Positions 1-3,000 of a DNA stretch of 64,000 bases are shown here, one piece after another (the first letter of the stretch is position 1; every line of letters starts with the position of its first letter). Position numbers: made by a program. This DNA comes from Candidatus Pampinifervens sinense (lineage in GTDB: Bacteria; Aquificota; Aquificia; Aquificales; Aquificaceae). The stretch lies in contig JAXSPP010000006.1 in assembly GCA_037927135.1 (NCBI GenBank), positions 1-64,000 of the forward strand, in the 5' to 3' direction.

Positions 1-3000
1 GCTTTTCAATGCTGGTAGTGGGTGGAGGACTTTAACTTGTGTGCTTGTGTATGTATATGCTTATGCTATTGGATATAGTTATTACAGGAGGGGTGAACTT
101 GAGGTCTAATTTCTCACCCAGCGTATAAGAATAGTATAATCTTAAGGAGATAATGATGCCTGAGCTGTTGCTAGCCCTTTATACAGGCTTGTTTTTTACT
201 ATAGTTTTCATAGTTGCTCCCGTTTTGTTAAGAGCTAGGGAAAATAAAAACCTTGCGGGAAGGTTCTATGGATCCATCCTTTGGAGATCCTATAAGCTTG
301 CTTTTTTACTCCTAATGTCTTATCTTATTTTAGGAAATGAAAGGGTTTATACCTTACTCCTTATGCTGGGCCTTGGTCTAAACGTGGGGGTATCATACTG
401 GCTCAAAGCCTATAAGAGAAAATTGGGCAATATAGATCTTATTGATTACCATGATCCAAGGAGATCACTCTTTAGGAAGGTCTCCATGCTCTCAACCTTT
501 TTATTACTCATAAACTTTCTCATCTCCTTCTTTATACTTTTAAAAAAACTAAAAGGAGGTGGCTTTGCAGGAGTATAGGGTAAACAAACAGATTAAGGCT
601 AAGGAGGTAAGGCTTATAGACGAGAACGGTAAGCAGATAGGCATAGTCCCATTGCAAGAGGCTCTGAGGATAGCCAGTGAAAAGGGTTTGGATCTTGTAG
701 AGGTTGCTCCCAATGCCAACCCGCCCGTTTGTAAGATACTGGACTATGGGAAGTTCATGTACGAGCTTAAAAAGAAGGAAAAGGAAGCGAGGAAGAAGCA
801 GAGGGAGCACGCCATTGATGTAAAGGATATGATGCTATCCATCAGGATTGATGAGCATGACCTTAAGGTAAAACTAAAGCACATGAGAGAATTCCTCATG
901 GATGGAGATAAGGTAAGAGTAAGGATACGCTTTAGGGGAAGGGAACATTTACATCCTGAGCTTGGAGACAAGCTTGTAAACAGAATACTAGAGGAGCTCT
1001 CAGATGTAGGCCAACTTGAATCACCAGTGAAAAAAGAGGGAAACTTTTTGGTCTTCTCATTGCTTCCAAAGAGAAAATAAATTTTAAAATAAGAGGTGGA
1101 GGGGAATATGACGCCTGTTGGAGCAACCACAGAGATAAGGCTCATAGATATACTTCAGAAGGCGCTAAAGGCCAATGCCTCCGATATACATATAACAGCT
1201 GGTGCAAGGCCAGCGCTGCGTATAGATGGCAAGATTACACCCATGCTGGAGTATCCTATATTGACTCCAGAGATGACACAAAGACTGGTTTACTCTGTAA
1301 TGTCCGAAAAACACAGAAAGATCCTTGAAGAGAAAGGTCAAGTGGACTTTTCCTTTGGGGTAAAGGATATAGGTAGGTTTAGAGCAAATGTGTTTATGCA
1401 AAGAGGTTCTGTGGCAGCAGCTTTTAGAAGATTACCCCACAGGATAATGAGCGTAAAGGAGCTTGGTCTTCCCGAAAAGGTCCTTGAGTTATGTCATAAA
1501 AGCATGGGTCTTGTTCTTGTTACAGGTCCAACAGGTTCTGGTAAAAGTACAACCCTTGCAGCTCTAATAGAGTACATAAACCAAAACTTTCCATACCATA
1601 TAATAACCATAGAAGATCCTATAGAGTATGTCTTCTCCCACAAAAGAAGCATAGTTAACCAGAGGGAGATAGGTGAAGATGTACATAGCTTTGCAGATGC
1701 TTTAAGGGCTGCATTGAGAGAAGATCCGGATGTCATACTTGTTGGAGAGATGAGGGATTTGGAAACCATTGAAATAGCCTTAAGGGCTGCAGAAACAGGA
1801 CACTTAGTCTTTGGAACACTTCATACAAACACAGCCATATCTACTATAACAAGGATAGTGGATGTTTTTCCACCGGAGCAACAATCGCAAGTAATCATAC
1901 AGCTTTCCTTTGTCCTTCAGGGTGTCATATCCCAAAGACTCATTCCTAAGATAGGTGGTGGAAGGGTCCTTGCCTATGAGCTCTTGATACCTAACACGGC
2001 CATAAGGAACCTTATAAGAGAAAACAAGCTTCAACAGATATATCCTATCATGCAAAGCGGACAGGCAGAAACTGGTATGCAAACAATGAACCAATCTCTA
2101 TATTCACTTTACAAGGCGGGCCTTATCACCCTAGAGGATGCTTATAAGTATTCACCGGATGTCAAAGAGTTGGAGAATATGATAAAGAGAGGGGGATAAA
2201 AAATGCCAAGATATAGGTATAGGGCCTTTGATGATGCTGGTGCTTTGGTGGAAAGTGAGGGGGAGTATCCTACTCAAGAGGCTCTAATAGCGGACCTACA
2301 GCAAAGGGGCCTCACCGTTTTGCAGGTTATAAACCTTGAGGAGGGTAAAAAAGAGAGGAAAAGTATTTTAACCCTTTCTCTTTCCTTAGGGAGGAGTGTA
2401 AGCGATAGAGATCTTTCCATATTTTGTAGACAGCTAGGAACTATGATAAATGCAGGACTTAACCTTATAGACGCTTTAAATATATTGGCGGAACAACTAC
2501 CTAATAAAAAGCTTGCAGAAGCTAGTAAAAAAGTGGCGGTAATGGTTAATGAAGGAAGGCCTCTATCCAATTCTATGGCAGAATTTCCTTCAGTCTTTCC
2601 AGAATTCATAGTAAACCTTGTAAAGGTTGGTGAGGAGACTGGTAATCTGGACATCGCTTTAATGAGGGCTGCAGATTATTATGAAAAAATGGCTTCAATA
2701 AAAAATAAGATTAAAAGCGCTTCCTTCTATCCCACCTTTGTAGTTATAGTAGCCACCATTATAGTAACAGGTATTTTGTATTTCTTAGTTCCCACCTTTG
2801 CAGAAATATACGCTTCCCTCGGCGGTGAGCTACCATTACCCACTCAGATGCTTATAGCGGCATCAAACCTAATAAGGTCTAACCTTCTTTATGCACTTGC
2901 TTTTATAATAGGCTTCTTCTTTCTTTTTAGATTCTTGATGAAGAATGTTTATCAGTTTAGAAGGGCAGTTCACACCTTTATGCTAAGAGCTCCCAAAATG

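Follow-up and report, generated by a model that had tools for sequence, protein, structure and literature searches.

The window, a stretch of 64,000 nucleotides (G000:C6:1-64000, G000 being the assembly under study), opens inside a mobile element. Positions 1-124 form the right end of this element, with 96.8% identity to element positions 843-966. They comprise the 3' end of the transposase gene on the forward strand (1-109; residues 248-282, stop codon at 107-109), which at C6:2-106 is a 100% match to the transposase of G015, a closed genome of the same genus, and a 17-bp right terminal inverted repeat (108-124, forward strand) that ends in GT and presumably supplied the 3'-OH end joined to the target. 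Next comes a 30-bp target duplication (125-154), whose other copy is located at C7:126-155; both of its boundaries are C^AT steps that coincide with the start codons of divergent genes. The last two bases of the duplication are the AT in the ATG of a host gene encoding a hydrophobic protein of 141 aa (153-578, forward strand) without an NCBIfam match. This gene is followed by infC (559-1080) and then by pilT, the first gene of the region 1096-4543, in which we take the following two genes to encode a PilC-like protein and a YchF-like GTPase.

Two promoter cores overlap within the duplication. Judging from the sequence, the window copy retains a TATAAT -10 box for the 141-aa gene and infC (135-140, forward strand), and the C7 copy retains a -10-like TATACT (133-138, reverse strand) 6 nt before the ATG of the divergent C7 gene. 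The statement of a first-pass annotation that an insertion leaves the gene a copy of its -10 box was found to hold wherever the box lies in the duplication, and both boxes are kept at the window junction. A -35-like hexamer, TTCTCA, is predicted within the terminal repeat (111-116, forward strand; 10/12 consensus match), facing outward and located 18 bp before the retained TATAAT, so that the terminal repeat and the retained box are predicted to form a hybrid promoter with this 18-bp spacing. Hybrid promoters have been reported for ISAba825, an IS982 element (PMC7335449). The spacer between hexamer and box measures 16-19 bp at 26 of the 44 ends with a forward TATAAT, and a -35 within two mismatches accompanies 27 of 158 TATAAT promoters of the host. 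Operators located further upstream would still be cut off by the insertion.

The surroundings of this promoter were compared at the window junction (125-155), at G000 C5:10174 and at the loci L157, L158, L168, L169 and L033. At most same-genus loci, the promoter lies between an upstream divergent gene, presumably smc, and a short ORF that precedes the window's gene. In G000, a different divergent gene adjoins the window's gene, and a similar promoter stays with the smc-like gene, joined to another gene, at whose promoter an element end is present in G015. These neighbour changes fit an old element-mediated reshuffling through TATA cores. An empty allele of the window's own junction was not found among 11 same-genus loci, whose upstream neighbours differ.

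Copies of the element and their target duplications

The 40 stretches fetched from G015 hold 89 element ends and 21 full copies, 20 of which are 966 bp and one 965 bp long; the length of 964 bp given earlier was therefore 2 bp short. The full copies are 94-99.9% alike, have the 17-bp AC...GT repeats and 282-aa DDE transposase already described, and carry an intact 282-aa frame in 19 cases. Repeat matches number 103 in G015. In G000, 17 of the 24 contig ends are indeed element ends (8 right and 9 left), and the full element is collapsed out of the assembly, leaving the window with the last residues of the transposase only. The deleted copy reported in G000 is also present (C1:79467-79974); it is internally deleted and diverged, and has no duplication. 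In a metagenome containing this strain, the word depth was approximately 460-480 at the element end versus 21.7 at the flank, which is a rough sign of high copy number and not a copy count.

Four pairs of G000 contig ends rejoin exactly, as reported, with duplications of 30 bp (C6L/C7L), 28 bp (C4R/C10L), 27 bp (C9L/C5R) and 26 bp (C1R/C11L). Among the nine ends listed as unpaired, C4L gains a partner (an exact 25-bp duplication, next to an end remnant of about 45 bp at C9:56884), and the other eight stay unpaired. From 45 pairs in several Aquificales genomes (search limited to repeats of at least 15 bp), 31 clean sites were obtained by removing 15 tandem, cross-genome, redundant or imperfect pairs and adding one. 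Their duplications measure 23-38 bp, the range first proposed, with a median of 27 bp. The range also holds in G015, where exact duplications flanking one and the same copy were found for 12 of the 21 full copies (11 had been given earlier). There, the duplications at L016 and L020 are offset or imperfect, the two halves of one 27-bp pair lie at different copies (L012/L013), and no exact duplications of 4-22 bp were seen around the 21 full copies. Two copies in G023 have exchanged their 26- and 29-bp pairs. Copies with repeats of 0-2 bp are at least partly recombinants, as illustrated by L012/L013 and the G023 pair.

Six G015 sites could be aligned across in G000 as orthologous empty sites, each with a single copy of the duplicated stretch, and the duplications were therefore made by insertion. 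One of the six lies within the window: the divergent promoter at 41257-41283 contains a single copy of a 27-bp stretch, which in G015 flanks the element on both sides (L014). In G050, a closed genome of an AT-rich host (32% GC), anchored repeats of 24-34 bp were detected in 9 of 21 paired elements versus 0 of 1032 cross-locus flank pairings, which served as a chance control. An assembly artefact is ruled out by the closed genomes G015, G060 and G050 and by the single-copy empty sites; that the terminal AT is part of the element is ruled out by non-AT boundaries identical in both copies (L014, L015 and L035).

Tandem arrays of element, duplication and element occur at L030, L048, L032, L005, L094, L119 and L252, with sites reused at the same or nearly the same boundaries. 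At L011, L031 and L034, an element without a duplication separates two back-to-back promoters that lie side by side in G000, which fits two neighbouring insertions collapsed by recombination. Short elements of 128-285 bp carry the same terminal repeats, some of them with 23-31 bp duplications. Many elements of 130-290 bp with shared terminal repeats are present in G050, G145 and G015 (repeat matches: 112 in G050 and 177 in G145), and the interiors of the short G015 elements tested gave no alignment to the transposase element.

Several features of individual copies were also observed. At a left end (L002:2329-2430; the same sequence occurs at G000 left ends), an antisense extended -10 promoter is predicted just inside the transposase start, pointing outward across the 5' leader, with a strong hairpin (z -4.8) and then a T-run downstream. 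Such an arrangement could yield a short antisense RNA akin to RNA-OUT, the short antisense RNA of IS10. The transposase's own TATAAT lies inside a 23-bp palindrome. One copy adjoins an apparent CRISPR leader and repeats (L002:2465-2650; also L017 and L029), and the 28-bp stretch at this CRISPR-like L002 site recurs at L029 together with its upstream DNA.

Element matches were found in 52 of 148 genomes of the order, and most of the named records with matches belong to Aquificaceae or Hydrogenothermaceae, a few coming from elsewhere, for example Calescibacterium. A plasmid collection contained no match to the element. Sister elements with 48-54% protein identity have long duplications as well (24, 26 and 33 bp in G060; 25, 27 and 32 bp in G052; 24-29 bp in G088, G107, G089 and G023). 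In a distant subclade (approximately 37% identity), three two-ended copies have 0-2 bp, a value that recombined copies would show as well. A copy in G130, a genome of another family (L052, on G130:C4), is 100% identical to the G015 copy L023, and an interrupted copy in G060, a closed genome of G130's family, is 98.7% identical (L209). This near-identity suggests a recent transfer between families, G130 being a binned genome in which misbinning is possible.

Cut sites and the targeted core

At the 62 half-sites of the 31 clean sites, the attacked strand has C at -1 in 41, A at +1 in 52 and T at +2 in 55, with the full C^AT in 31. Each of the 18 same-genus clean sites has at least one C^AT cut, and ^RT is also found in the AT-rich G050 (57/59 and 56/59). 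Since the same motif occurs at both boundaries, both are argued to be true joining sites. Between them, the AT content is 83%, versus 61% outside the duplications, and reaches 90-93% at positions 13-16 from the end.

The target had been described as the stretch from TATAAT to the start codon, and both parts of this description hold in part. An exact TATAAT lies inside the duplication at 18 of the 31 clean sites, mostly in a central position, and within 30 bp of the end in 50 of 92 same-genus end/site groups (54%) versus 28% of AT-matched intergenic windows; the associated p value of 7e-8 is overstated because some promoters recur across genomes (shuffle means 12 and 20). The target itself begins approximately 10 bp upstream of the box (median 10, IQR 8-11, 44 ends). 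In G050, the box was found in 19 of 59 cases; shuffles averaged 13.7 and reached 25 at most, and the AT-matched distal flanks predict 4.8. The enrichment over AT-matched intergenic DNA is clear in this genus, as previously suggested, and weak in AT-rich G050.

With regard to the other edge, the cut falls at a coding start in 10 of the 18 clean same-genus sites and elsewhere in the rest. Where an ATG lies 23-38 bp from the other cut, 24 of 25 sides are cut at an ATG; 12 of these 24 ATGs are coding starts, versus 114 of 303 (38%) AT-rich, box-containing ATGs of G000, where gene starts were taken from a simple purpose-made gene caller, so that the share of starts does not clearly exceed this background. 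Recognition of the start codon is not needed to explain this coincidence, because the C^AT rule accounts for it: such cuts fall at ATG whether it is a start or not. The host -10 peak is located 6-9 nt before start codons, and in two Aquificae 20-32% of genes have been reported to be leaderless (PMC3160421). Forward boxes are faced equally often by the two element ends (10/32 and 10/30), with no promoter-side preference, and genic insertions are few (L025, and probably C7R and C9R). Given the C^AT rule, the weak enrichment in G050, the lack of orientation bias, the variable spacing and these genic hits, the idea that promoters or start codons are recognised as such finds no support.

The rule alone (C^AT at one end, RT or AA at the other and an exact box in the core) selects 163 intergenic versus 96 coding loci in a genome with a coding density of 95.5%. 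When one mismatch in the box is allowed, 595 coding versus 419 intergenic loci are selected, and selection or another factor must therefore do much of the work. A convergent-gap test of selection has little power, with 1.7 cases expected of 92.

Family placement and canonical IS982 elements in the same hosts

The predicted structure of the transposase (pLDDT 84.9) is that of an RNase H-fold transposase, and its best structural match is the Tn5 transposase (Z 12.0, rmsd 4.1, 233 aligned); a Foldseek search with the model gave no match at E 0.001 or better. D114, D215 and E240 are invariant across the clade, IS982 and IS5-type proteins, and K247 (E+7) is invariant in the clade. IS982 is described as having no conserved K/R 6-7 residues after the catalytic E, yet a lysine aligns with K247 in three of four IS982 proteins above the curated cut-off. 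Compared with canonical IS982, the protein has a basic hairpin insertion of approximately 12 residues near 144-159 and a D215-E240 spacer of 25 residues versus roughly 45, with about 20 residues missing. By analogy with IS1202, whose indels track repeat length, these two changes may widen the stagger.

IS982 is the closest family by profile comparison. The transposase scores 30.5 bits against the IS982 profile NF033520 (E 2.5e-7), far below the curated cut-off of 130 bits, and all 23 clade members match this profile weakly (best E 7.7e-12). Of the IS5 profiles considered (NF033581 and NF033580), NF033581 matches 18 of the 23 members weakly (best E 1.1e-9) and the query itself not at all. HHalign to IS982 gives E 1.4e-5 with one protein and 1.5e-12 with six above-cut-off proteins (97.7%), versus 0.055 and 0.12 with two single IS5-type proteins. 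Pfam gave no match for the query, and profile searches returned relatives and no other family among the best 150 matches. The assignment, earlier called weak, is stronger than that by profile comparison, with a score that stays far below the IS982 cut-off.

IS982 elements have been described as 845-1282 bp long; they encode a single transposase of about 290 aa, their terminal repeats begin with 5'-AC, and their direct repeats measure 2-10 bp (70 elements; PMC7335449). The present element, with 966 bp and 282 aa, lies within this size range and shares the length of about 1 kb, the single ORF, the repeats beginning with AC and the DDE enzyme. Its terminal repeat contains the AC and T9 of the IS982 consensus AC(N6)T(N5)TT, with TT at 16-17 instead of 15-16. 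On the other hand, its duplications of 23-38 bp at the 31 clean sites lie outside the family's range, identity to IS982 proteins is about 20%, the profile score is below the cut-off, and the hairpin insertion and short D-E spacer set it apart. A long-duplication variant related to IS982 is real and well supported, and it was not filed as an IS982 member because of its score and repeat length.

Canonical IS982 elements, above the NF033520 cut-off, are present in the same phylum and allow a comparison within one host. In G060, five of eight canonical copies have duplications of 13, 10, 15, 9 and 5 bp and two have none, whereas the long clade has 24, 26 and 33 bp there; canonical copies in other genomes have 13, 7, 5, 2 and 0 bp. 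A duplication length determined by the host is ruled out by these short repeats, and the long duplication is therefore a property of the clade and not of host repair. Canonical copies in G016 and G024 have 7-bp TATA-like duplicated cores (a reading made partly by eye), and variable length and TATA-like cores already exist in canonical IS982 relatives. Adding two helical turns to 7 bp would give approximately 27 bp, parallel to the 5-6/16-17/27-28 series of IS1202.

Origin of the long duplications

The best explanation, to which we assign a probability of about 0.6, is a wide-stagger attack on C^AT steps that flank a TATA core in bent or opened form, combined with selection. An IS982-derived DDE transposase would join the two ends to target strands at a separation of approximately 27 bp (23-38) rather than 5-10. 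On its own strand, each end would attack a 5'-C^AT step, or at least ^RT, and the AT-rich, TATA-like core between the steps would be bent or locally opened, without a need for RNA polymerase. Both active sites would be located about one helical turn further out per side than in canonical IS982, the stagger length would be set by where suitable C^AT steps flank the core, and the long gaps would be filled by host repair. In this host, such cores would mostly be -10 boxes, and the downstream C^AT would often be a start codon because many genes start 6-9 nt after the box. Each side would receive a full copy of the core, the DNA upstream would be replaced by the element with TTCTCA offered as a substitute -35, the fitness cost would probably be low, and most genic hits would be removed by selection. 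Against this explanation, a rigid complex would be expected to yield a narrower range of lengths than the one observed (23-30, tailing off to 38), and the full C^AT is found at half of the cuts and no more.

Guidance by RNA polymerase or a sigma factor, or capture of the open complex, would place the upstream cut within the spacer and the downstream one close to +2. The TATAAT enrichment above the AT-matched intergenic background and the end-to-box distance centred on 10 nt are equally compatible with such guidance; one promoter is hit in G000, G005, G006 and G020, and ISLre2/TnGBS and ISKra4 elements, which insert next to sigma-A promoters, provide a precedent (PMC3942029). However, these precedents keep a fixed distance of 15-17 bp, whereas the clade is spread mostly over 6-15 nt, leadered promoters (C6L and L035) are cut at the ATG 14-15 nt past the box and not at the expected transcription start, some hits are genic, and the enrichment in G050 is weak. 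As there is neither an orientation bias nor a fixed spacing, targeting intrinsic to the DNA plus selection is the likelier of the two, and polymerase guidance appears unlikely.

Two further readings are very improbable in our judgement. One is an ordinary short stagger whose duplication was lengthened later by strand displacement or repair. Duplication length does vary, canonical IS982 repeats in these hosts vary too (5-15 bp), and the long variable repeats of IS1549/IS1634 were described without a model in 2008 (PMC2266710); the same C^AT motif at both boundaries, the repetition of boundaries at reused sites (exactly at L048, within 2 bp at L030) and the short repeats of canonical IS982 in the same host argue against it. 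The other is that nothing beyond AT-richness is targeted and that the promoter location purely reflects survival under selection in a dense genome. In line with this, 67% of AT-matched windows fall in coding sequence, the signal in G050 is weak, and an intergenic bias is seen in most IS families (bioRxiv 2025.07.22.666184). Yet the box is about twice as frequent as expected within intergenic AT-matched DNA and usually central, and, since the start survives in the duplication no matter where the cut lies, a boundary at AT^G cannot be the work of selection.

A bolder version, which we consider doubtful, is that what the transposase recognises is the -10 element itself in its opened state, as a thermal bubble or in the open complex of the polymerase. 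By straddling it, the enzyme would copy an entire minimal promoter, even a bidirectional one, and add a -35 at the correct spacing from its own end; recombination between copies, followed by loss via the shared TATA core, would reshuffle genes. If true, the element would be a parasite built to keep expression intact, and gene reshuffling at promoters would help scramble Aquificales gene order.

Long duplications (IS1202, IS1182 and IS1549) and promoter targeting (ISLre2) are each known, in separate families. The IS1202 subgroups have repeats of 5-6, 16-17 and 27-28 bp, with the length changing with transposase indels (bioRxiv 2022.12.17.520857). The 27-28 bp subgroup is close to the clade's median of 27, although IS1202 is a separate family with narrow lengths and its reported targeting concerns the short-repeat subgroup at xrs sites. 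IS1549/IS1634 (8-514 bp; PMC2266710) and IS1182 (2-60 bp; PMC7335449) share long variable duplications of unexplained origin, but the former are two atypical elements, and the passages describing them give no cut-site rule or promoter link. ISLre2/TnGBS (p-MULT 3), the ISKra4 group and ISH6 have Mutator-type enzymes and insert 15-17 bp upstream of the -35, p-MULT 3 in an oriented manner, leaving the promoter whole, and ISH6 duplicates an AT-rich motif (PMC3942029). The clade likewise inserts at promoters and duplicates AT-rich DNA; unlike these elements, it cuts within the spacer, mostly 6-15 nt before the -10, in either orientation and with the -10 core copied. Like IS5, which belongs to a different family with a short target duplication of 4 bp, it would prefer easily opened DNA near promoters. 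The preference described for IS5 is for stress-destabilised duplex sites (PMC5493358). As for IS982 itself, neither a structure nor a mechanism was known according to a 2020 account, which also describes the transposition pathway (cut-and-paste or copy-out) as unknown for the family (PMC7335449).

The first-pass annotation had found no paper on this clade, and a further search of the literature, with ISfinder, subscription journals and supplements outside its scope, also found none. The combination of traits, the cut rule and the same-genome control have no precedent in the papers searched; an ISfinder entry or a supplementary table may already include the element. The clade provides a compact model for the origin of long target duplications, offering a 282-aa thermophile enzyme, a cut rule that can be tested, and relatives with short repeats that occur in the same genomes. 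In these hot-spring bacteria, a neighbouring gene usually keeps its -10 box since the duplicated 23-38 bp are often the promoter core. With a duplication that holds the -10 and the start codon, the element can enter a divergent gap of 26-30 bp and each gene keeps a box, a property that may account for copy numbers above 20 in compact genomes as well as for the spread between families. Finally, 2-bp repeats are given for the archaeal IS982 members ISPfu3 and ISTli1 (Table 1 of PMC7335449), the value seen in recombined copies here, and the true length of these repeats may merit rechecking.
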